Origin: Polyangiales bacterium
GTDB lineage: Bacteria; Myxococcota_A; Polyangia; Polyangiales; Ga0077539
Reading direction: 5' to 3'
NCBI GenBank assembly: GCA_044229975.1
Contig: JBGARZ010000001.1
Span: 192,001 to 256,000, forward strand
DNA: 64,000 nucleotides
Shown here: positions 11,105-60,857 of the stretch, in pieces
Layout of the letters: each line of letters opens with the position of its first letter
Position numbering within the stretch: the stretch's first letter is position 1
Notes under the pieces: generated by a model
Databases searched by the model: none
What the model was told of the DNA's origin: nothing
The model's input: the letters and a program-made list of their open reading frames with translations, nothing else
Made by a program: the position numbers and the translations under genes

Positions 11105-12958
11105 TCAGTCGTCGGGGTCGTCGTCGGAGTGATGGCGGTGACGGCGGTGGGTCGAGCGGTGCGTGCTGTGGCGCCGCGAACGGTGGCGGCGGTGGTGGTC
11201 GTCGTCCTCTTCGACCGCGGCATCCATCGGGGCAGCCATGACGGCTGCGTCGGCCGCGACCGAAGCGTCGGCCGTGACCGAAGCGTCGGCCATCACCGAG
11301 ACGTCCATGGTGGTCGCGGCATCGATCACCACGGCCGCGTCGAGGGTGACCACGGCGGCGACAGGCGGAGCGACGGCGGGTGGAGCGGGTGGGGCCGCCG
11401 CGATGACCGGGCGCGGTGGCGGTGATGGCCGGAGGAGGGCGACGGCGGGCGGGTTGCGGGTGAAGGTTCCGCGCAGGAGGAGCACGAACGCGCCGCAGAC
11501 GAGGCCGCCGAAGACGAGGCCGAGGGCCACCAGAAGCGCGCCCGCGGCACGGCGGGAGCGAGGCGGCGGACGAATCGACGAGGACGAACGCAGGGGCGGG
11601 TACGACGGAGCGACGAGCTCGGGCGGGGTATACGGGACCTCGTCGGCGGGCTCGTCGATCGCGAACTCGACGGGCTCTTCCGGCGGCGGCGCTGGAGGTG
11701 GTGTCGGCGGTCCCGGACGGAAGGTCCCGCGCGGCGGAACCGAGGCGGACGCCATCACCGTCGTGGTTCGCCCCTCGTCGTCGACGGGCTGCGGCGGACG
11801 CGACGACGGCGACGGTGGGTGCGACGACGGCGGCGCGATGGAGGGCGTGTAGCGCGGCACCTCGATGCGAGCGATGCCATCGGAGGGCGTCGGGAAGCCC
11901 GGCATGAGCTCCGTCGAGGACGGCGGCATCGACGAGTGGCGGACCTCGCTCTGCGAGGGCGTGCGACGGTGGGTGCCCGTCTGCGAGCTCCAGAGGTCGG
12001 AGTCGTGGTCGTCGACACCGGGCGGCAGGGCGTTCATCAGGGCGGAGAGAAACTCCGCCGCGTGCTCGTAGCGGTCGCTCGGCCGCAGCGCGAGGGCGCG
12101 AGCAAACACGGGCTCCCACGGCCCCACATCGACGCCGCGCTCACCCGGCGTGGGGCGACGCGGGGACAGCACGTTGGCGCACATCTCCATGGCGTCGCCG
12201 CCCTCGAAGGGAATCTGCGCGGTGAGCATCTCGGACATGAGCAGCGCGAGCGCGTGCACGTCCGTCCACGGCCCCGTGCGCATCCCGCTCACCTGCTCCG
12301 GCGCGGCGTAGTCGGGAGAGAAGGCCTGCACCTGCGTGAGCGTCTGCGCGCGATCGGCCCGGCGCTCTTCGGTGCCCATCACCTTCGCGATGCCGAAGTC
12401 CAACAGCTTGAGCCGCGCGTTGCCGCGGCGGCCGGTCACGATCATCAGGTTGCCGGGCTTGATGTCGCGGTGGACGATGCCCTCCTCGTGGGCGATGCCC
12501 ACGGCCTCGATGACCGGGTACATCAGCGCGATGGTCTCGGCCGGCGTGCGCCCCGACGAGCCGGTCTCGATGCGCTGGTTGAAGTCCGCTTCGAGCGTCA
12601 CGCCCTCCAGCCACTCCAACGCCATCCACGGCGCCTTGGCCCCGCTCGGCATGATGGACGTCCCGAAATCCAGCACCCGCACGATGTGCGCGTGATCGAG
12701 CTGCGCGACGGTGCGCGCCTCCTCCGTGAAGCGCAGCAGGAACTCCTTCTGCTGCCGCTGCGTGAGGTCGCTCGGGGTCTTGAGCACCTTGATGGCGACG
12801 GGCTTCCGCAGCTCGCGGTGCTGCGCCCGGTACACCACCCCGAAGCCGCCTTGCGCGACCACGCCGACGACGTCGTAGCGAGAGTCGAGGCGCGCACCCA
12901 CCAGGCCAAACGGGTCGACCCGACCCTCGGATGTTGTTGCGGCGGGCTTCACACTCAT
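11105..12958 (-). CDS. Membrane Ser/Thr protein kinase
   Basis: GGFGVVY, VAIKVL, HRDIKPGN, DFGIAK, YAAPEQ; Pro-rich linker, TM helix, His/Arg-rich tail. Confidence 0.93.
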   Translation of the reverse strand: MSVKPAATTSEGRVDPFGLVGARLDSRYDVVGVVAQGGFGVVYRAQHRELRKPVAIKVLKTPSDLTQRQQKEFLLRFTEEARTVAQLDHAHIVRVLDFGTSIMPSGAKAPWMALEWLEGVTLEADFNQRIETGSSGRTPAETIALMYPVIEAVGIAHEEGIVHRDIKPGNLMIVTGRRGNARLKLLDFGIAKVMGTEERRADRAQTLTQVQAFSPDYAAPEQVSGMRTGPWTDVHALALLMSEMLTAQIPFEGGDAMEMCANVLSPRRPTPGERGVDVGPWEPVFARALALRPSDRYEHAAEFLSALMNALPPGVDDHDSDLWSSQTGTHRRTPSQSEVRHSSMPPSSTELMPGFPTPSDGIARIEVPRYTPSIAPPSSHPPSPSSRPPQPVDDEGRTTTVMASASVPPRGTFRPGPPTPPPAPPPEEPVEFAIDEPADEVPYTPPELVAPSYPPLRSSSSIRPPPRSRRAAGALLVALGLVFGGLVCGAFVLLLRGTFTRNPPAVALLRPSPPPRPVIAAAPPAPPAVAPPVAAVVTLDAAVVIDAATTMDVSVMADASVTADASVAADAAVMAAPMDAAVEEDDDHHRRHRSRRHSTHRSTHRRHRHHSDDDPDD

Positions 12959-13111
12959 GCGCGGGGGATGCGGCCGCGGCGACGCTAACACATCTCCCCC
13001 GGCAGATGAGCCACGCGGCGCGAGGCCACGCGCGCGACGGACGAGGTCAGCGTCCCTGGAAGGTTGCGTCGCGGACAGCGCTGGCATATCTCGCTAGAAG
13101 GAACCCCTCCC

Positions 13112-13936
13112 ATGCCCTCGTTTCTCGTCTACCGCCTGGGGCAGCCGATGCGGCGGCTGACTTTCGAGACGCCCCCGATTCGTGTCGGGCGCGACCCGGA
13201 GAACGACATCGTGATCCGCAGCGAGACGCTCTCGCGCGAGCACGCGATGTTTCTCCAGGACGAGAGCAAGCGCTGGTACGTGACCTGTGTGTCCGAGACC
13301 AACCCCATCGTGGTGGGGGGCAAGCTCGTCGCGAAGTCGGCGCCGGTCGCCGACATGAGCGAGATCCTGGTGGGCAACGAGTGCCTGATCATCTTCGTGA
13401 CCAACCCGGCCAACGCGGCGCACCTCGTCGACTCCAAGTCGACCCAGCAGGTGGTCTGCCCGCAGTGCTGGTGGACCGCGATGATGTCCATCTACAACAA
13501 CCACGCGAACTGTCCGCGCTGTGGCGGCGGCCCGCTCGCACCGGCCGAAGAGCCGCTGCCGGGCACCGAGGACGGCGCCGCCCCGCTCGACGCCAGCACC
13601 CGCATGATGAGCGGCGTCGAGCTGCGATCGTCGTACCGCATCATGCGCGAGGCCAAGCGCTCGGTGCTGCTGCGCACCGACCAGTACGGCGGGAGGAAGT
13701 TTCTCTCCGAGAGCGAGACGGTGGAGATCACCAAGGACAACCCGGACATGCCCCTCAAGGGGATGTTCGTGGGCGGCGGCTTCACGCTCGCGTGGGACGG
13801 TCAGAGCTGGACCATCGAAAACCACCTCTCGTGGCGTCGGCTCTTCGTCAACGGGCAGTCGGTCAACACGACGCAGCTCAAGATGGGCGACGTCATCGAG
13901 GTCGGCTCCAACCGCTTCCAGCTCACCTCCGAGTAG
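13112..13936 (+). CDS. FHA - zinc ribbon - FHA-like protein
   Basis: GRDPENDI..LSREHA (FHA); CPQC..CPRC; C-terminal FVNG..LKMGDVIEVG. Confidence 0.8.
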   Translation: MPSFLVYRLGQPMRRLTFETPPIRVGRDPENDIVIRSETLSREHAMFLQDESKRWYVTCVSETNPIVVGGKLVAKSAPVADMSEILVGNECLIIFVTNPANAAHLVDSKSTQQVVCPQCWWTAMMSIYNNHANCPRCGGGPLAPAEEPLPGTEDGAAPLDASTRMMSGVELRSSYRIMREAKRSVLLRTDQYGGRKFLSESETVEITKDNPDMPLKGMFVGGGFTLAWDGQSWTIENHLSWRRLFVNGQSVNTTQLKMGDVIEVGSNRFQLTSE

Positions 13937-15389
13937 CGCGCGACTCTTCGAGCAGCTCGCGCGCCGCGATGCGCAGGATGCGCGGAAGCACGAAGCGAAA
14001 CACCTCGCAGTAGGGACTCCGACCGTCGACGTGACCGTCACGGCGGTGCAGCAACAGAGGACACCCGCCGGCGCACGAGTGCTTGAAGCGACACGCGTCG
14101 CAGGTGTCGTTGGGCGATCGCTTCTGGAAGGTCGCGCCCATCACCTCGGGGGCCATCCTCAATAGCGCGGTGTCGGGTTCGAGCGCGGCTGATCCTTCGC
14201 GGTGCAAGCCCGCCTGGCAGGGTGACAGCCGACCGTCGTGGGAGACCGCGAGGGAGCGCTCGCCCGCGGCGCAGGCCCGCCCGATGGGTTGCCGCCATTG
14301 CAGGTCGCAGAAGCGGTGCGTGCGGCGAAACGACGGTCGCACGGGCATCGCGCGCTCGATGCGGTCGTAACACTCGCCGAAGACGCGCAGCACCCGCGCG
14401 AGCGCATCGCCCTCCAACATCGGGGCTTCAGCGGGACTCGGGCGTGACGCGCGACGGAGCTTCACGAGACCCGCGCCGGGGCGCCAGCCGGGGAGGCGCG
14501 CGTCGAGCAGCGCGTCGCCGCCGTCGAGGTCGCGCACGAGCGAGTAGCGGAAGCCCATCTCGCGGCCGAGGAGCCAGTCGGTGAGCGCGGGGATTCCGTC
14601 GAGGTTGTCGGCGGAGACGGTGACGAGCGCGTAGGGGCGCAGGCCCGCCGCGACGAAGGCGTCGAGGCCGCGCTGGAGGTCGTCGAAGGACCCGCCGCCG
14701 CCGAGCGCGGGGCGCATGGTGTCCTGCGCGGCGCCGACGCCGTCGATGGACACGCTCACGGAGACGTCGTGGTCGCGCATCCAGCGGGCGGCGTCGTCGG
14801 GGACGGTGGTCCCGTTGGTGAGCACGGCCGCGGTGAGCGTGGCGCCTTCGCGGGCGAGCAGCGCGCGGGTCTCTTCGAAGAAGGTTCGGATGAACCCGAA
14901 GCGCAGCAGCGGCTCTCCCCCGGCGAAGCGGAGGTGAACCGCGCGCACGCCGTCCTCGCGCACGGTGGCGAGCAGCGACGACTGGAGCGCCCGCGCGGTG
15001 TCGTCGGAGAGCGAGCGGCCGTCCTTCTCGATGTAGCAGTAGGGGCAGTCGAGGTTGCACGCGTTGGTGACGTGAACCCAGAGGTCGAGCGAGCGCGGCG
15101 CGGGCCTCGACGGCGGCGGAACCGGGAGACCGTGGCCGGTGACGAAGCCGTTGCGCGCGAGCATCGGGAGCTCTCGCGCGAGGGACTCGACGGGGCGTCC
15201 GAGCGTCGCGGCGAGGTCGCGGAGGGGACGGCCGTCGGCGAGGTCGAGCAGCGAGGCGGCGTCGCGGGAGAGCAGGGCGAGGGCGTCGCGGCCGCGCGGG
15301 TTGTGCACGAAGCGCCGACCCTCGACGATGCCCAGGTAGAGCCCCTCGGCGCGACGAACGCGGGCTTCGGCGAGATCATGGACGGACAC
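13923..15389 (-). CDS. Radical SAM/SPASM protein with putative N-terminal RRE (PqqD-like) domain
   Basis: CNLDCPYC (15036-15059), AGGEPLL, TNGT, SIDG; SPASM cysteines ACAAG..SPC..CDACRFKHSCAGGC..YC. Confidence 0.9.
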   Translation of the reverse strand: MSVHDLAEARVRRAEGLYLGIVEGRRFVHNPRGRDALALLSRDAASLLDLADGRPLRDLAATLGRPVESLARELPMLARNGFVTGHGLPVPPPSRPAPRSLDLWVHVTNACNLDCPYCYIEKDGRSLSDDTARALQSSLLATVREDGVRAVHLRFAGGEPLLRFGFIRTFFEETRALLAREGATLTAAVLTNGTTVPDDAARWMRDHDVSVSVSIDGVGAAQDTMRPALGGGGSFDDLQRGLDAFVAAGLRPYALVTVSADNLDGIPALTDWLLGREMGFRYSLVRDLDGGDALLDARLPGWRPGAGLVKLRRASRPSPAEAPMLEGDALARVLRVFGECYDRIERAMPVRPSFRRTHRFCDLQWRQPIGRACAAGERSLAVSHDGRLSPCQAGLHREGSAALEPDTALLRMAPEVMGATFQKRSPNDTCDACRFKHSCAGGCPLLLHRRDGHVDGRSPYCEVFRFVLPRILRIAARELLEESRATRR

Positions 15390-15395
15390 GCGCCG

Positions 15396-16682
15396 TCACC
15401 AGTCCGACGAGCAGTCGCTCGAACAGTCGGAGCTGCAATCGCTCGAACAGTCGCTGGAGCAGTCGGAGCTGCAATCGCTGGAGCAATCCGAGGAGGAGCA
15501 GTCCGATGAGGAGTTGCAATCCGACGACGACCAGTCGGAGTCCTTGGAGCAGTCGCTGGAGACGCAGTCCGCGCAGTCGGTCTTGGTGACGCAGTCGGAG
15601 CAGTCGGCGGAGTTCCAGTCGGAGGTGGACGACCACGCGGGGTCGCTGGCGTAGACCGAGCCGTAGTCGGCGAGGTCGATGGGCTGGTCGGAGGGCGAGC
15701 CGAAGTCGTGACCGGCGAGCGAGTCGATGCCCGCGAACTTGTCCTCCATCGAGGGGATCGCATCGAACTCGCCCACGAGCGCGCCATCGGTGCGAACGAT
15801 GTGCACCGGCATCTCCCACGACCCGTGCATGTCGTGGTGATGGTGGTGGTGCATCGCGGCGTGCACGGCCGCGTCGAGGACGATGAGGTCGACCCAGTCG
15901 GAGTACGGGTCGCGGTAATAGACGTCCCAGGGGTCGTAGTAGGCCGACGGGTACGGCGGCGCGCGAAACCGCGTGTCGGTGCGCAGCGTCGGCGCCCGCA
16001 TCGCGGCGGCGTCGCGGGCCATGGCCTGCACCGCGCGCGGCGTCGGCTGCACCACCCGCGAGACGGTCGCGTACTCCTCGACCCTCGACCCGGGCAGCGC
16101 ATACGCGAGCCCGTCGCGCGCGCGGCCGACGAGGCCCTTGAAGACGTGCTGATGCGGCTTCGCCCGGTAGGGGTCGGCGCCCATGGCGGAGACGCGCGCC
16201 CGGGTCTGCGCGAAGGTCTCGCCGGGCAGCGGGCGCAGCTCCTCGATGCGCCCGCCGAAGGCGATGACCCCGGCGGCCGTCCCTGGCTGGAAGCGCGACT
16301 GGAAGGTCGCCTCGATGAGCGAGTGCACCCCCTGCTCGTGGTGCTCGAAGATCGCCCGCACCTCGCGAAATGGCTTCGTGAACCGCTGCGGCTGGGAGCG
16401 CATCGCCTGGAGCAGCCAGTGTGCGTCGTCGGCGTTGCCGAGCTCGTCGCGCCACACCACGGCGTCGTCGAGCAGCACGGCCACGGCGTCGCGCACCCCG
16501 AAGCTGAGCAGCAGGTTGCCCACCGCCTCGACGAGGCCGAGCGCGTGCATGCCGTGTTCGAGCTGACCCGAGCGCAGGTCGTGCTTCGCGCCGAAGGCCG
16601 CCGTGCAGGACTCCCAGAACGTCGGGCTACGCATGGCCTCACGGCCTGGCAGCCACACCCAGAGTCGAGCCGTCATTCGCAT
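15396..16682 (-). CDS. Hypothetical protein with His tract and C-terminal (SSDC)n Cys/Ser/Asp tail; candidate radical SAM substrate
   Basis: 428-aa ORF whose stop is 6 bp before the rSAM start; 14 Cys in the last 68 aa versus 1 Cys elsewhere. Confidence 0.8.
   Translation of the reverse strand: MRMTARLWVWLPGREAMRSPTFWESCTAAFGAKHDLRSGQLEHGMHALGLVEAVGNLLLSFGVRDAVAVLLDDAVVWRDELGNADDAHWLLQAMRSQPQRFTKPFREVRAIFEHHEQGVHSLIEATFQSRFQPGTAAGVIAFGGRIEELRPLPGETFAQTRARVSAMGADPYRAKPHQHVFKGLVGRARDGLAYALPGSRVEEYATVSRVVQPTPRAVQAMARDAAAMRAPTLRTDTRFRAPPYPSAYYDPWDVYYRDPYSDWVDLIVLDAAVHAAMHHHHHHDMHGSWEMPVHIVRTDGALVGEFDAIPSMEDKFAGIDSLAGHDFGSPSDQPIDLADYGSVYASDPAWSSTSDWNSADCSDCVTKTDCADCVSSDCSKDSDWSSSDCNSSSDCSSSDCSSDCSSDCSSDCSSDCSSDCSSDCSSDW
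15399..15602 (-). repeat. Peptide-level repeat: Asp-Cys units ending in (CSSD)x7-W
   Basis: 12-bp period with mixed synonymous codons (TCG/AGC/TCC/TCA, TGC/TGT, GAC/GAT). Confidence 0.9.
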
Positions 16683-55535: not shown

Positions 55536-58500
55536 ATGGACGATATGGGCTTCCTGCGTTACGCCGTCCCCATGGTGGCCCTCCGCTCCGTCCTCGGCGT
55601 CCGTCCGTTCGCGCTCGCGCTGCTCTCCCTCACCCTCGCGCTGAGCTGTACCGCGCCGTCCCCGCCGGTCGGCCAGTGCCGCTACGACTCGGACTGTTCG
55701 GACGGGCAGATCTGCCAGGGCACCACCTGCCGCGCCACCTGCCGCACCACCACCGACTGCCCCACGGGTCAGACCTGCCAGGAGCGCGACGGCGCCCGCG
55801 CCTGCGTCCCGATGGGAGCTCCCGGCGAGTGCGCCTTCGCGAGCGACTGCCCCGCCGGACGGATCTGCACCCAGGACGGCGCGTGTCGCCCGCCCTGCGT
55901 CCAGAACTACGACTGCGAGGTCATCAACCCCTTCATGAGCTGCCGCGAGGGCGCGTGCGTCCTCACCTGCTCCGCCGGCCGCGGCGACTGCAACGTCGAC
56001 CCCGTCGACGGCTGCGAGACCGACCTCCGCTCCGCCCTCCACTGCGGCGCCTGCGGAACCGTCTGCACCGCCCCCGCCCACGCCGTCTCGGCCTGCGGTG
56101 CGACGGGGTGCACCTTCACCTGCGAGCCGGGCTTCGGCGACTGCGACGGCGACGCCACCAACGGCTGCGAGGCCGACCTCTCGCGCCCCGACCACTGCGG
56201 CACCTGCGAGACCGTCTGCGGCGGCGCGAGCCCCCTGTGCACCGTGTCCATCACCGGTGGCGTGCGGCGGGCGTCGTGCGCCGTTGCCTGCTCGGGCGAG
56301 ACCCCCGACCGCTGCGGCGACTCCTGCGTCAACCGCGTCAACGACCCCGGCCACTGCGGGGCCTGTGACAACCGCTGCCCGGGCGGCCCGCGCGGCGCCG
56401 CGGTGTGCGTCGCGAGCGAGTGCGTCCTGCGCTGCGACGACGCGACGGCGGTGGGTGACTGCGACGGCGTCGCGAGCAACGGCTGCGAGACCGACGTGAC
56501 CGCCGCCGCCCCCCACTGCGGCGCCTGCGGCAACGTCTGCGCCGCCGCCCCCAACTCGACGCCCGCGTGCATGCGCGGCGCGTGCGCCGTCGTCTGCGCG
56601 ACGGGCTTCGGCAACTGCGACAGCGCCCCCGCCAACGGCTGCGAGGTCGACCTCGCCGCGACCCCCGCCCACTGCGGAACCTGCGGCAACGCCTGCCCCG
56701 CCCGCCCGCACGCCGCGGCCACCTGCGCCGACTCGCGCTGCGGGTTCACCTGCGACGCGGGCTTCGCCGACTGCGACGGCGACCCGAGCAACGGCTGCGA
56801 GGTCGAGCTCGCGACGGCGCCCGCCAACTGCGGCGCCTGCGGGAGCGCGTGCGTCGTGGCCAACGGCGTCGCGGGCTGCGCGGCCGGGGCGTGCACCCTC
56901 GCGCGCTGCAACGAGGGCTTCGGCGACTGCGACGGTGACCCGGGCAACGGCTGCGAGACCAACCTCGGCACCAACGCCACCCACTGCGGGGCGTGCGGCA
57001 CGCGGTGCTCGTTCCCCGGCGCGGGCGCGCGGTGCAACGCGGGCCGCTGTGAGTCGACGCAGGTGTGCATGCCCTCGACGCTCGGCGACTGCGACGGCAA
57101 CGCGAGCAACGGCTGCGAGACCGACCTGCTCACCTCCTCGGCCCACTGCGGAACCTGCGGCGCCGCCTGCTCCCTCCCCAACGCCGAGTCGTCGTGCGGC
57201 GCGGGCCGCTGCGCCATCGTCCGCTGCAACGCGGGCTTCGCCGACTGCGACGGCATGCCCGCCAACGGCTGCGAGACCAACCTCAACACCAGCGCCACGG
57301 CGTGCGGCCGATGCGGCAACGCGTGTAGCACCAGCAACGCCACGCCCGCGTGCGCGGCGGGGGTGTGCCGCCTCACCTGCGCGGTCGACTTCGCCGACTG
57401 CGACGGCAACCTCGGCAACGGCTGCGAGACGCCCACCAACAGCAGCACCGCCCACTGCGGCGGCTGCGGGCGCGCCTGCTCGCTGCCCAACGCCACGCCG
57501 GTGTGCACCAACAGCCGCTGCGCGGTCGCGAGCTGCGCTGCGGGCACGGCCGACTGCAACGCCGCCGCGGCCGACGGCTGCGAGGTGGTGCTCGGCACCA
57601 GCGTTCTCCACTGCGGCATGTGCGGGCGCGCGTGCAGTCTCGCCAACGCCACGGCGGCGTGCACGGGCGGGAGCTGCACCATCGCGAGATGCAACGCCGG
57701 CTTCGGCGACTGCGACGGCGACCCGAGCAACGGCTGCGAGACCAACCTCGCCACGACGCCCGCCCACTGCGGCCGCTGCGGCGGGGCGTGCGGGGCCATC
57801 AACGGCTCGGCCACCTGCACCGCGGGCGCGTGCGGCATCACCTGCGCGACGGGCTACGGCAACTGCGACGGCAGCCTCGTCAACGGCTGCGAGACGCTCA
57901 CCACCAGCAGCAACAGCCACTGCGGTCGCTGCAACAACGCGTGCGGCACGGGCTTCGTGTGCAGCGCCGGGGCGTGCGGGTCGGTGTGCGGGTCGGGGAC
58001 GACGTTCTGCTCGGGGGCGTGCGTCAACACGCAGACGAGCCCGGCCAACTGCGGCGCCTGCGGGGTGACCTGCCCGGGCGCGGCCAACGCGACGGCGACG
58101 TGCGCGAGCGGGGCGTGTTCGTTCCGTTGCAGCGCGGGCTTCGGTGATTGCGACGGGTCGGCCGCCAACGGCTGCGAGACCAGCTTCGCCACCAGCCCCG
58201 CCCACTGCGGCGGCTGCGGCAATGCCTGCAACCCCACCAACGGCACGCCCACCTGCGCGGCCGGCGCGTGCGGCATCACCTGCGCGACGGGCTTCGGCAA
58301 CTGCGACGGCTCGGCCGCCAACGGCTGCGAGGTCGACCTCCGCAGCACCGTCACCTCGTGCGGGTCGTGCGGCGCCGCGTGCTCGCTCCCCAACGCCACG
58401 CCGGCGTGCATGGCGAGCGCCTGCGCGGTGTCGAGCTGCACCACCGGCTTCGCCAACTGCGACGCCGTCGCGAGCAACGGCTGCGAGATCGATCAGCGCA

Positions 58501-60857
58501 GCGACGTGCGCCACTGCGGCGGCTGCGGACGGGCGTGCAGCGCCACCAACGGCTCGCCGACGTGCAGCGCGGGAGCGTGCGGCATCACCTGCTCGGCGGG
58601 CTTCGGCAACTGCGACCTGAGCGCTGGCAACGGTTGTGAGGTCGACACCAACGTCACCCTCGCCCACTGCGGTGGCTGCGGCCGCGCGTGCAGCCTCGCC
58701 AACGCCACGCCGGTCTGCACCGCGGGGGCGTGCGCCGTGTCGAGCTGCGCCGCCGGCTTCGGCAACTGCGATGGCGTCGCCAGCAACGGCTGCGAGGCCA
58801 ACTTCGCCACCAACGCGGCCCACTGCGGCCGCTGCGGAAACGCCTGCGGCGCGGGCTTCTTCTGCGCGGGGGGCACCTGCACCCGCGACTGCGGGTCGCT
58901 CACCAACTGCTCCAACGTGTGCGTCAACGTGCAGACCGACGCGGCCAACTGCGGCGGCTGCGGGACGGCGTGCACCTACCCCAGCGCGACGGGCGTGTGC
59001 TCCGCGGCGACGTGCTCGCTGGGCGCCTGCAACGCCGGCTTCGGCAACTGCGACGCGGTCGCGAGCAACGGCTGCGAGACCAACACCAACACCACCCTCG
59101 CCCACTGCGGCGGCTGCGGGATGGCGTGCGCGCCGGCCAACGCCACCGGGAGGTGCACGGCGGGCGCGTGCGGCATCGCGGCGTGCGCCGCGGGCTGGGG
59201 CAACTGCGACGGCGCGGTGGGCAACGGCTGCGAGACCAACACCACCACCTCGGTGGCCAACTGCGGCGCTTGCGGCACCGTCTGCACCCCGCCCGCCGAC
59301 GGCACCGCGGTGTGCACCGGCTCGGTCTGCGACTTCACCTGCAACGCCGGGTACTACCGCGTCGGGACGCAGTGCGTGGGCATCCCCAACCCGCGGCAGC
59401 TATCGCCCATGTCCACGTCGACGGCGACCACGCAGCGGCCGACCTTCCGCTGGACCAACGCCGCAGGCTTCACCGAGGCGCGCATCCAGCTCTGCACGCA
59501 GCGCTCGTGCGCGACGGTGGCGCAGACCGCGGACGTCACCGGGTCGTCGTGGGCGCCGACGGCCAACCTCGCGCGGGGCGTGTGGTTCTGGCGCGTCGCG
59601 GGGCGGCAGGGCGCCAGCGTGGGCTTCGTGTACTCGCCGGTGTGGGAGGTGTTCGTCCCCGCCGTCGGCATCGCGGCGCGAGCGGGGTCGTTTGGCGCCA
59701 TCAACGACGTCAACGGCGACGGGTACGCCGACCTCGTCGTGGGCAGCAACCAGGGCGAGAACGTCTACATCTATCACGGCGCCGCGGGCGGCCTGCCGGG
59801 CTCGGCCTCGCAGGCGCCGCTCACGGCCGTCGCGGGCAACCGCTTCGGCTACGCGGTCGAGGCCGCGGGCGACGTCAACGGCGACGGCTACGGCGACGTC
59901 ATCATCGGCCTGCCAGGCGCCAGCACCGCGCGGGTGTACCGCGGGTCGGCGGCCGGGCTGACCGCCGCGGGCTTCACGACCATCAGCGTGAGCGGCACGA
60001 CGGGCTTCGGCGGCTCGGTCTCCTGGGCGGGCGACGTCGACGGCGACGGCTACGGCGACGTGATCGTGGGCGCGTGCTGGAGCGGCGCGGCGTGCTCGAA
60101 CCAGGCGTTCTTGTTCCGCGGGTCGACGCGCGGGCCTATCGCGACGCCGCACCGCATCTACAATTCGCCGTCGACGGGGCAGACCAACTTCGGTCGGCGC
60201 GTGCGCGGCCTCGGGCTCGCCGACAACGACGACCTCGCGGACGTCGCGGTCAGCTCGGACAGCGCGATCTCCGTCTACTACGACGGCACCAACACCGTCG
60301 GCACGAGCATCACGGTGAGCAACTTCACCGACTTCGACGCCGCGATGGACGTCAACAACGACGGCTACGGCGACCTCGTCTGGGCCAACCGCATCAGCAC
60401 CGCGGCGGTCGCGCAGAACGTCTTCATCCACCACGGCTCGGCCACGGGGATCTCGGTCACCAACAATTTCACCTTCCGCGCGGCGGTGACCTCGTACGGC
60501 GTGTGGGTGGCGGGCGTCGGCGACGTCGACGGCGACGGCTACGGCGACCTGCTCTACAGCTACCAGGGCAACTCGGCGGCGGTGCGCTACGGCAGCAGCG
60601 CGGGCATCGGGGCGCGCGGCAACGCGCTCACGACCATCGCGGGGACGGGCTACGCGCGCGGCGTGTCGCGCCTCGGTGACACCAACGGCGACGGCTTCAA
60701 CGACGTGTGGGTGGGCGCGCCGGACTGGTCGGGGGAGTTCCTGTGCACCGACGAGCAGTACATCCACCGCGGCGCGGCGGGCGCGATCACGCTGGGCGGG
60801 ACGGCCATCACGCCGGTCGACAACGGCTGCGTGGACTACAGCCCGTCGCTGGAGTGA
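55536..60857 (+). CDS. Giant Cys-rich repeat surface lipoprotein with C-terminal FG-GAP (integrin-alpha-like) propeller
   Basis: LALSC lipobox; about 19 DC.G..NGCE..HCG.CG repeats; seven D-x-D/N-x-D-G-like motifs. Confidence 0.88.
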   Translation: MDDMGFLRYAVPMVALRSVLGVRPFALALLSLTLALSCTAPSPPVGQCRYDSDCSDGQICQGTTCRATCRTTTDCPTGQTCQERDGARACVPMGAPGECAFASDCPAGRICTQDGACRPPCVQNYDCEVINPFMSCREGACVLTCSAGRGDCNVDPVDGCETDLRSALHCGACGTVCTAPAHAVSACGATGCTFTCEPGFGDCDGDATNGCEADLSRPDHCGTCETVCGGASPLCTVSITGGVRRASCAVACSGETPDRCGDSCVNRVNDPGHCGACDNRCPGGPRGAAVCVASECVLRCDDATAVGDCDGVASNGCETDVTAAAPHCGACGNVCAAAPNSTPACMRGACAVVCATGFGNCDSAPANGCEVDLAATPAHCGTCGNACPARPHAAATCADSRCGFTCDAGFADCDGDPSNGCEVELATAPANCGACGSACVVANGVAGCAAGACTLARCNEGFGDCDGDPGNGCETNLGTNATHCGACGTRCSFPGAGARCNAGRCESTQVCMPSTLGDCDGNASNGCETDLLTSSAHCGTCGAACSLPNAESSCGAGRCAIVRCNAGFADCDGMPANGCETNLNTSATACGRCGNACSTSNATPACAAGVCRLTCAVDFADCDGNLGNGCETPTNSSTAHCGGCGRACSLPNATPVCTNSRCAVASCAAGTADCNAAAADGCEVVLGTSVLHCGMCGRACSLANATAACTGGSCTIARCNAGFGDCDGDPSNGCETNLATTPAHCGRCGGACGAINGSATCTAGACGITCATGYGNCDGSLVNGCETLTTSSNSHCGRCNNACGTGFVCSAGACGSVCGSGTTFCSGACVNTQTSPANCGACGVTCPGAANATATCASGACSFRCSAGFGDCDGSAANGCETSFATSPAHCGGCGNACNPTNGTPTCAAGACGITCATGFGNCDGSAANGCEVDLRSTVTSCGSCGAACSLPNATPACMASACAVSSCTTGFANCDAVASNGCEIDQRSDVRHCGGCGRACSATNGSPTCSAGACGITCSAGFGNCDLSAGNGCEVDTNVTLAHCGGCGRACSLANATPVCTAGACAVSSCAAGFGNCDGVASNGCEANFATNAAHCGRCGNACGAGFFCAGGTCTRDCGSLTNCSNVCVNVQTDAANCGGCGTACTYPSATGVCSAATCSLGACNAGFGNCDAVASNGCETNTNTTLAHCGGCGMACAPANATGRCTAGACGIAACAAGWGNCDGAVGNGCETNTTTSVANCGACGTVCTPPADGTAVCTGSVCDFTCNAGYYRVGTQCVGIPNPRQLSPMSTSTATTQRPTFRWTNAAGFTEARIQLCTQRSCATVAQTADVTGSSWAPTANLARGVWFWRVAGRQGASVGFVYSPVWEVFVPAVGIAARAGSFGAINDVNGDGYADLVVGSNQGENVYIYHGAAGGLPGSASQAPLTAVAGNRFGYAVEAAGDVNGDGYGDVIIGLPGASTARVYRGSAAGLTAAGFTTISVSGTTGFGGSVSWAGDVDGDGYGDVIVGACWSGAACSNQAFLFRGSTRGPIATPHRIYNSPSTGQTNFGRRVRGLGLADNDDLADVAVSSDSAISVYYDGTNTVGTSITVSNFTDFDAAMDVNNDGYGDLVWANRISTAAVAQNVFIHHGSATGISVTNNFTFRAAVTSYGVWVAGVGDVDGDGYGDLLYSYQGNSAAVRYGSSAGIGARGNALTTIAGTGYARGVSRLGDTNGDGFNDVWVGAPDWSGEFLCTDEQYIHRGAAGAITLGGTAITPVDNGCVDYSPSLE

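Follow-up and report, generated by a model that had tools for sequence, protein, structure and literature searches.

What does a radical S-adenosylmethionine (SAM) enzyme do beside a large protein that ends in a run of Asp-Cys repeats? The question is raised by a locus in a 64,000-nucleotide stretch of a Polyangiales genome (GenBank assembly GCA_044229975.1, contig JBGARZ010000001.1, positions 192,001 to 256,000; hereafter the window), where the stop codon of the tailed protein, the carrier P0001, lies 6 bp before the GTG start of the radical SAM/SPASM enzyme P0002. Our results suggest that P0002 likely forms serial thioether cross-links on the Asp-Cys tail of the intact protein, a reading to which we assign a probability of roughly 0.6. 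That the enzyme acts on the tail in some way is very probable, and if it does, the chemistry is probably that of a thioether.

The tail, its Asp-Cys rule and the enzyme

The initial annotation described a 428-residue open reading frame (ORF) with a 14-Cys tail just ahead of a co-directional radical SAM gene, and both its coordinates and its sequence are as stated there. P0001 has 15 Cys, namely C26 and 14 within residues 361 to 424. Each of the 14 is immediately preceded by Asp, and the C terminus reads (Ser-Ser-Asp-Cys)x7 followed by Ser-Ser-Asp-Trp. Such a tail is found once among the 146,536 six-frame ORFs of the 10-Mb genome, which carries a single copy each of the carrier and enzyme genes. 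Assembly slippage and chance were considered as origins of the repeat and are ruled out by the divergence of synonymous codons under a perfect protein repeat (the DNA copies are only 63 to 82% matching) and by 32 homologues, with which the start codon also agrees.

Across 38 tails with 376 Cys, Asp is found at position -1 of 364 Cys, Ser at -3 of 297, Asp at +3 of 235 and Asp at +4 of 69. The first of these preferences holds where the periodicity of the repeat is broken. In 39 tails, the Asp at -1 was kept for 93 of the 94 Cys that lack another Cys in the five residues upstream, and among the 94 Cys that are followed by no further Cys, 52 also lack an Asp at +2 to +4. For isolated Cys, the Asp at -1 is present in 41 of 42 cases and an Asp at +3 or +4 in 14 of 42. 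Cys and Asp are the only invariant tail residues, and in 23 homologues with generic Ser/Gly-Cys tails, none of the 97 Cys follows an Asp. At the sequence level, the tail unit is an Asp immediately before a Cys. Because this Asp persists where the periodicity is broken, it is probably either the acceptor or the recognition residue. The CX2D or CX3D register that had been proposed by analogy with PapB is not the best supported one, since Asp sits at -1 and seldom at +3 or +4 of isolated Cys. The motif counts overstate independence as many tails are related, although both types of carrier and the short peptides described below still obey the rule. A His-rich tail of (Ser-His-Asp-Cys)n directly before the enzyme at L008:2-796 (G027) suggests a metal-binding variant.

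A Tyr-Asp-Ala/Ser-like motif lies ahead of the first Asp-Cys in 29 of 38 tails; it is degenerate in P0001 and is also found in a Cys-free tail of the same genome. A 316-residue ORF (G000:C23:282830-283780, minus strand) has a Gly/Asp tail that is free of Cys, contains Tyr-Asp-Ala and closes with Asp-Trp, the generic form of this type of tail.

The structure model of P0001 predicts a folded alpha/beta region (residues 1 to 345) and a disordered remainder (348 to 428). Library scans matched P0001 to no Pfam or NCBIfam family, and NCBIfam, TIGR04222 included, gave no match for it or for seven homologues. No signal peptide and no convincing membrane helix were predicted in P0001 (one marginal window at 1.63; none in P0124). 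Foldseek returned no match at E<=0.001, the best Z score in VIA (7.2 over 96 residues) is within background, and the P0001 profile had no match in the PDB and hit only unnamed clusters in the ESM Atlas. The fold is without a clear solved-structure relative, which does not in itself imply a novel fold. A profile search found a carrier-domain family of 349 clusters at 50% identity. Its 150 best representatives have Asp-Cys repeats (7), generic Ser/Gly-Cys tails (23), Cys-free acidic tails (17), or other tails, no tail or fragments (103), and this variety means that the domain exists without an Asp-Cys tail. Carrier homologues are 400 to 450 residues long, and tail length and spacing vary freely.

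P0002 belongs to the radical SAM/SPASM superfamily (PF04055 at 56.5 bits against a cut-off of 29.5; PF13186 is weak, in 39 of 82 members). The CxxxCxxC motif and full SPASM Cys set seen by the initial annotation are indeed there: the motif and eight later Cys (361, 373, 391, 430, 433, 439, 443 and 461) are invariant in 82 of 82 aligned homologues. Approximately 90 proteins are homologous at E<1e-100. In a quick tree, 48 clade rows form one group (SH-aLRT 99), and the eight SPASM Cys are present in 47 of them. The best NCBIfam scores against their cut-offs were 106.4/340 for PapB (NF047865), 100.1/453 for QhpD (TIGR03906) and 98/450 for DynA, followed by 79.5/349 for anSME (TIGR03942), 68.9/525 for CrpC (TIGR04463) and 65/425 for CteB (TIGR03974). 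No model among the 25 best of 73 NCBIfam families passes its cut-off, and TIGR04115 (CXXX-repeat target maturase, cut-off 350) is absent from these 25, all at or below 106 bits.

The AlphaFold model of P0002 (pLDDT, a predicted score of the local distance difference test, 92) begins with a domain of about 85 residues, strand rich and then helical. Its best structural match is CteB (E of 3.5e-19 over 489 columns), with anSME and SuiB also matched, and the family profile aligns with CteB from chain residue 24, covering the N terminus of CteB. By sequence profile, PqqD was found in 1 of 82 members at an E value of 0.02, and a second search found none. The N terminus is therefore RRE-like (RRE, recognition element for peptides that are ribosomally synthesized and modified after translation [RiPPs]) by predicted fold and not by sequence profile. 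Of the RRE proposed earlier, the structural part stands while the sequence support is weak, and for that reason the assignment rests on the fold. Six active-site-lining positions, as defined in PMC10288494 and mapped through the family profile-CteB alignment, read Y-A-L/I-S-Q/H-A in all 48 rows (Y-A-L-S-Q-A in P0002) and F-F-T-S-H-Q in CteB. The conserved Arg154, Arg281 and Arg286 would suit an acidic substrate. Complex prediction for the enzyme with carrier residues 290 to 428 scored 0.00, which is no answer and is not used as evidence. Outside the window, a region of about 130 kb (G000:C30, ~4,900 to 133,800) holds at least 24 ORFs with a radical SAM-type CxxxCxxC, an unusually dense island.

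Linkage to the enzyme and portability of the tail

The initial annotation made it a test whether the tail occurs only where the radical SAM gene is adjacent. The association itself holds up, but the tail need not be encoded next to the enzyme. Among 46 species-genome loci of the enzyme clade (46 to 83% identity), 29 show the carrier immediately upstream of the enzyme, another 3 place it within 6 kb, and 14 lack it in the fetched DNA. Of these 14, the carrier is encoded elsewhere in the genome for 3, three genomes with the TPM carriers described below account for 6, 2 are in fragmented genomes and 3 are true orphans. A sample of 401 genomes of the phylum contained the carrier domain in 34 and the enzyme clade in 28. 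The enzyme was present in all 23 genomes with a repeat-tailed carrier and in none of the 10 whose carrier domain is of a distant form, and no Asp-Cys repeat was seen in any of the 9 of these 10 genomes whose tails were read. In a 24th carrier genome, G437 (81% complete), the carrier is cut by a contig end and there is no enzyme hit. Since 22 of the 23 genomes belong to one family, they represent two lineages and not 23 events. The gene pair is conserved in two Myxococcota families. Within the family of the window (31 genomes), the enzyme occurs in 12 genomes across 4 genera, and an Asp-Cys tail was found in 10 of the 12; in the enzyme-bearing genomes G023 (1,850 contigs) and G028 (76% complete), no tail turned up. 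In the window's genus, three of nine genomes have both genes and six have neither. Taken on their sequences, P0001 and P0002 are a real, conserved candidate for an enzyme-substrate pair.

In genus g5, the tail sits on unrelated proteins, in trans to stand-alone enzyme genes. G012 and G025 each encode one such tailed protein and G029 encodes three, and all five end in Ser-rich Asp-Cys repeats with a final Asp-Trp. Four of the five have a TPM domain (PF04536); the fifth runs off the end of its contig but is clearly a homologue of the G025 protein. No resemblance to the carrier domain was seen in these proteins (E of at least 2.5). The enzymes of these three genomes nest within the window's subclade in the quick tree, with two copies each in G025 and G029, and most g5 enzymes without a neighboring carrier lie behind a glutamate-cysteine ligase gene. 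The TPM carriers have a signal-like N terminus, the TPM domain and then a membrane helix (three of the proteins have one, and another has three), an order that would place the tail in the cytoplasm, and both carrier types are predicted to expose it there. In the two g5 genomes without the enzyme (G019 and G030), a TPM protein, at most a putative ortholog of the tailed ones, has a Cys-free Ser/Asp tail ending in Asp-Trp. The Asp-Cys tail is thus portable, and its occurrence on unrelated membrane proteins suggests that what the enzyme likely cross-links is a tag, carried by whole proteins and able to pass between them.

The strict (DCxx)3 DNA pattern misses tails with five-residue spacing, and the tail-only profile is insensitive (8 of 61 genomes found; G001, G007 and G012 missed). 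We read the pattern matches of 15 genomes that lack the enzyme; all proved to be internal repeats or to lie out of frame, save one ambiguous 48-residue fragment at a contig edge in G377. Among viral contigs, 105 loci had the repeat pattern and none had a radical SAM hit. Four loci labeled Enterobacteriaceae or Klebsiella (L019, L035, L041 and L043) have enzymes that nest among Myxococcota, and the labels are probably wrong.

As for the surroundings (Table 1), the recurring neighbors in 41 loci are an MscS gene (20), an unnamed gene (22) and a weak metallopeptidase-like gene (13), which belong to the synteny of the other family and are not shared with the window. No exporter recurs beside the pair in these loci, in keeping with the earlier remark that none is adjacent. 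No sigma-70-like promoter was found at the locus, and terminator-like sites were near chance level. A divergent Ser/Thr kinase gene and a double-FHA gene occupy window positions 11105 to 13936; the latter converges on the radical SAM gene with a 14-bp overlap at its end, an arrangement not kept in homologous loci. Farther away (56457 to 58847), Cys-rich tandem repeats of about 52 residues (9 and 3 to 5 copies) look like typical myxobacterial disulfide repeats.

Table 1. Positions of the carrier, the enzyme and their parts in the window, and loci with short Asp/Cys-rich peptides
Feature	Position	Strand	Basis or remark
Carrier P0001, 428 aa	15396..16682	-	ORF; folded domain without named family plus disordered Asp-Cys tail
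Folded alpha/beta region, P0001 residues 1-345	15648..16682	-	Structure model, family profile
Asp-Cys tail, P0001 residues 360-428	15396..15605	-	14 Asp-Cys units; predicted disordered; putative substrate
Candidate leader-like stretch around Tyr340 of P0001	15648..15700	-	Weak motif basis
Radical SAM/SPASM enzyme P0002, 488 aa	13923..15389	-	GTG start at 15389; Myxococcota clade below every NCBIfam cut-off listed
RRE-like N-terminal domain, P0002 ~residues 1-85	15135..15389	-	Beta strands then helices, pLDDT ~97
CxxxCxxC motif, C111/C115/C118 of P0002	15036..15059	-	Sequence
SPASM region, eight Cys C361-C461 of P0002	14007..14309	-	Conserved Cys set
Short-peptide loci L056-58, L060, L080-81, L085, L089-90, L099, L124-125 (duplicates aside)	L090:212-3311; L060:5363-7104; L056:5968-7547		

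Proposed mechanism and competing explanations

The case for a thioether comes from the relatives of the enzyme, with CteB as the best match by both profile and fold and PapB and QhpD giving the best NCBIfam scores. We propose that the RRE-like domain would, with about even chances, grip the stretch just upstream of the first Asp-Cys. In each S/T-x-D-C unit, a 5'-deoxyadenosyl radical would then take a hydrogen from one of the residues, after which the sulfur of the Cys would close a ring with a loss of 2 Da per unit. If the product is a thioether, the Asp directly before the Cys is the foremost single candidate for the acceptor, held tentatively, and would give a six- or seven-membered ring; the Asp at +3 or +4 and the residue at -3 are each a less likely choice. 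Enteropeptin reportedly contains a thiomorpholine. PapB has the native motif CX3D, with Cys first, and processes CX0-6D in vitro (PMC9413430). For TqqB, a ring between adjacent residues is described in PMC9389541, which also has NxxcB tolerating Asp as an acceptor. The modified tail would stay on the protein, uncut, as a portable C-terminal tag. Its purpose is a matter for guessing, and the idea that a floppy, acidic and thiol-rich tail becomes a rigid, protease-resistant and probably metal-binding element is a doubtful one. We also consider it rather unlikely that the fullest version of the proposal is right in every part, namely, that one trans-acting enzyme recognizes the Asp-Cys tail on several unrelated full-length proteins and closes each Asp-Cys pair into a small sulfur ring, giving an undescribed poly-heterocyclic tail.

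Several observations weigh against our reading. The Asp at -1, the Ser at -3 and the Asp at +3 are coupled in a four-residue repeat, so conservation cannot name the acceptor. The active-site-lining residues of P0002 differ from those of CteB at five of six positions, and the SPASM region of the clade has eight Cys, while that of CrpC has seven, plus an open iron site where the thiol of the substrate is proposed to bind (PMC13692751). The co-occurrence rests mainly on two Myxococcota families, and the counts are therefore not independent. Four of the 401 genomes (G138, G153, G207 and G303, 94 to 95% complete) have the enzyme and no tail that we could find, and the three genomes from genus g128 lack the carrier gene in a block whose synteny is otherwise kept, although the catalytic residues of the enzyme are intact. 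The G303 enzyme, on a long branch and without C361, is a true counter-case alongside the three g128 genomes. Finally, the tail census beyond enzyme-bearing genomes is partial, with 15 of 30 pattern-positive genomes read.

The alternative that survives best, though still improbable, is that the enzyme acts on the tail without forming thioethers, either by an anSME-like oxidation of Cys (or Ser) or by carbon-carbon or carbon-oxygen links through the aromatic residue of W/F/Y-Asp-Cys. The eight SPASM Cys, the presence of anSME among the top fold and profile matches, and active-site residues unlike those of CteB all fit such chemistry, and an aromatic residue is found at -2 in 34 of 42 isolated Cys. 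However, the window repeat and the TPM tails are almost free of aromatic residues, which makes aromatics dispensable; only Cys and Asp are invariant, and the RRE-like domain and the best matches indicate thioether synthases.

Somewhat less probable again is a tail that stays unmodified, as a low-complexity or metal-binding extension, with the enzyme doing some other job and the pairing being inherited synteny. Orphan enzymes with intact motifs do exist, 40 of 150 domain-family representatives have Ser/Gly/Cys or acidic tails without the enzyme, and the tie between TIGR04222 tails and their enzymes is just a loose one (PMC12452194). Against this, the Asp-Cys form tracks the enzyme in two families with different neighbors. 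It is also attached to an unrelated carrier in genomes whose enzyme gene has relocated, and short peptides next to related enzymes of other phyla have it as well.

A similarly low probability attaches to the carrier being a very long leader from which the cross-linked tail is cut off as a RiPP. In its favor, related enzymes do adjoin ordinary Asp-Cys precursors of 35 to 55 residues, the window has an M1 peptidase gene about 2 kb past the enzyme, and 13 of 41 loci contain a weak M12/M43-like domain that scores below cut-off. On the other side, no exporter recurs, the weak peptidase-like gene is limited to one lineage's synteny block and persists there after carrier loss, and the carrier domain is found widely as a folded protein with tails of many types. 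TPM membrane proteins are implausible as disposable leaders, and tail length and spacing vary freely.

Known systems and what the pair adds

Thioether stapling of a large protein would not be new as such. The initial annotation had presented the stapling of a large Cys-rich protein by a radical SAM/SPASM enzyme as a candidate new system, but CrpC and CrpA of Methanococcus voltae, with ranthionine-type thioethers on a 29-kDa protein, were reported in 2026 (PMC13692751), and this kind is thereby already established. The same work gives experimental precedent to the earlier suggestion that the product is a modified whole protein and not a released peptide. In both systems, an enzyme with RRE, radical SAM and SPASM parts adjoins a large protein whose C-terminal region is Cys rich and repeated. 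They differ in the low CrpC score of P0002, in the number of SPASM Cys, in the repeat (a four-residue Asp-Cys unit here, a 17-residue repeat with C-x-x-Q/D in CrpA), in the position of the Cys (here after the conserved Asp, there before it) and in the occurrence of our tail on unrelated carriers in trans. A search of the PMC13692751 supplements by taxon gave no myxobacterial radical SAM-linked entry (one unrelated hit).

The ranthisynthases PapB (freyrasin) and CteB (SCIFF), which also have Cys/Asp-rich substrates, are the closest relatives by score and by fold. In contrast to their substrates, the candidate here is a protein of 400 to 700 residues; the native CX3D of PapB fits only 69 of the 376 tail Cys, and a 428-residue candidate substrate with no recurring exporter departs from the short released precursor of the ranthipeptide class. 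Like our candidate, QhpD (QhpC) is RRE guided and places Cys-Asp/Glu thioethers on a protein subunit, as outlined in PMC13692751. The substrate here is a repeat tail, however, and no amine dehydrogenase genes are among the recurring neighbors.

A repeated Asp-Cys motif with a radical SAM enzyme was described as Cluster 59 by Kostenko et al. in 2022, whose authors considered the modification not predictable (PMC9062424). Locus L090 fits that account, with genes for an integrase, for a short peptide containing six Asp-Cys and for an enzyme bearing the Y-A-L-S-Q signature, the identity being by description only; a short peptide carries the motif there, and large proteins carry it here. We found 14 loci (Bacteroidota, Acidobacteriota, Patescibacteria and metagenomes) in which enzymes 25 to 33% identical to P0002 stand beside Asp/Cys-rich peptides of 35 to 55 residues. 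Nine of the peptides were tested and none matched an NCBIfam family. The aligned enzymes share the first four active-site-lining residues, Y-A-L/I-S, with the clade, and the quick tree does not resolve them as its sister. It is plausible that an enzyme of the short-peptide type was captured and its motif written into preexisting floppy tails. At L080, two precursors are accompanied by a YcaO gene.

Large proteins with unstructured Ser/Gly/Cys-rich C termini (TIGR04222) have been proposed as substrates of another class of RiPP-type enzymes, the multinuclear nonheme iron-dependent oxidative enzymes (MNIOs); the tails treated in PMC12452194 are predicted to be periplasmic and are without an Asp-Cys rule, and P0001 has no TIGR04222 domain. 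Two carrier homologues with generic tails have other genes nearby. In G188 (L175:5517-9275), the gene for a homologue with a generic Ser/Gly-Cys tail has, 6 bp behind it, a long ORF containing two radical SAM domains (54.5 bits), of a type distinct from the enzyme clade and possibly a second enzyme-tail pairing on the same domain. In G175 (L177:4922-7744), a co-directional 300-residue gene lies about 750 bp away, whose start and end we take to be MNIO (DUF692)-like.

In the open-access literature, we found no paper that deals with the myxobacterial pair or with TPM tails as substrates of a radical SAM enzyme, although the supplements of PMC9062424 may list clade members. What is added to prior knowledge is the portable tail and the Asp-before-Cys rule. 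Radical SAM thioether chemistry has been validated on whole proteins in very few cases (QhpC and CrpA), and the system described here adds a simple, perfectly repetitive candidate substrate that is unusually easy to test, along with a natural experiment in which the tag has passed from one carrier to another, unrelated one and has parted from the enzyme gene. If our reading is true, it would answer the 2022 question of the Asp-Cys motif's chemistry, and a genetically encoded C-terminal stapling tag would be at hand. RiPP-type maturases could then serve dispersed protein substrates that cluster-based mining misses, there would be a testable reason for the Ser/Gly/Asp/Cys-rich ends of many bacterial proteins, and common floppy Ser/Gly/Asp tails would become enzyme-addressed tags.

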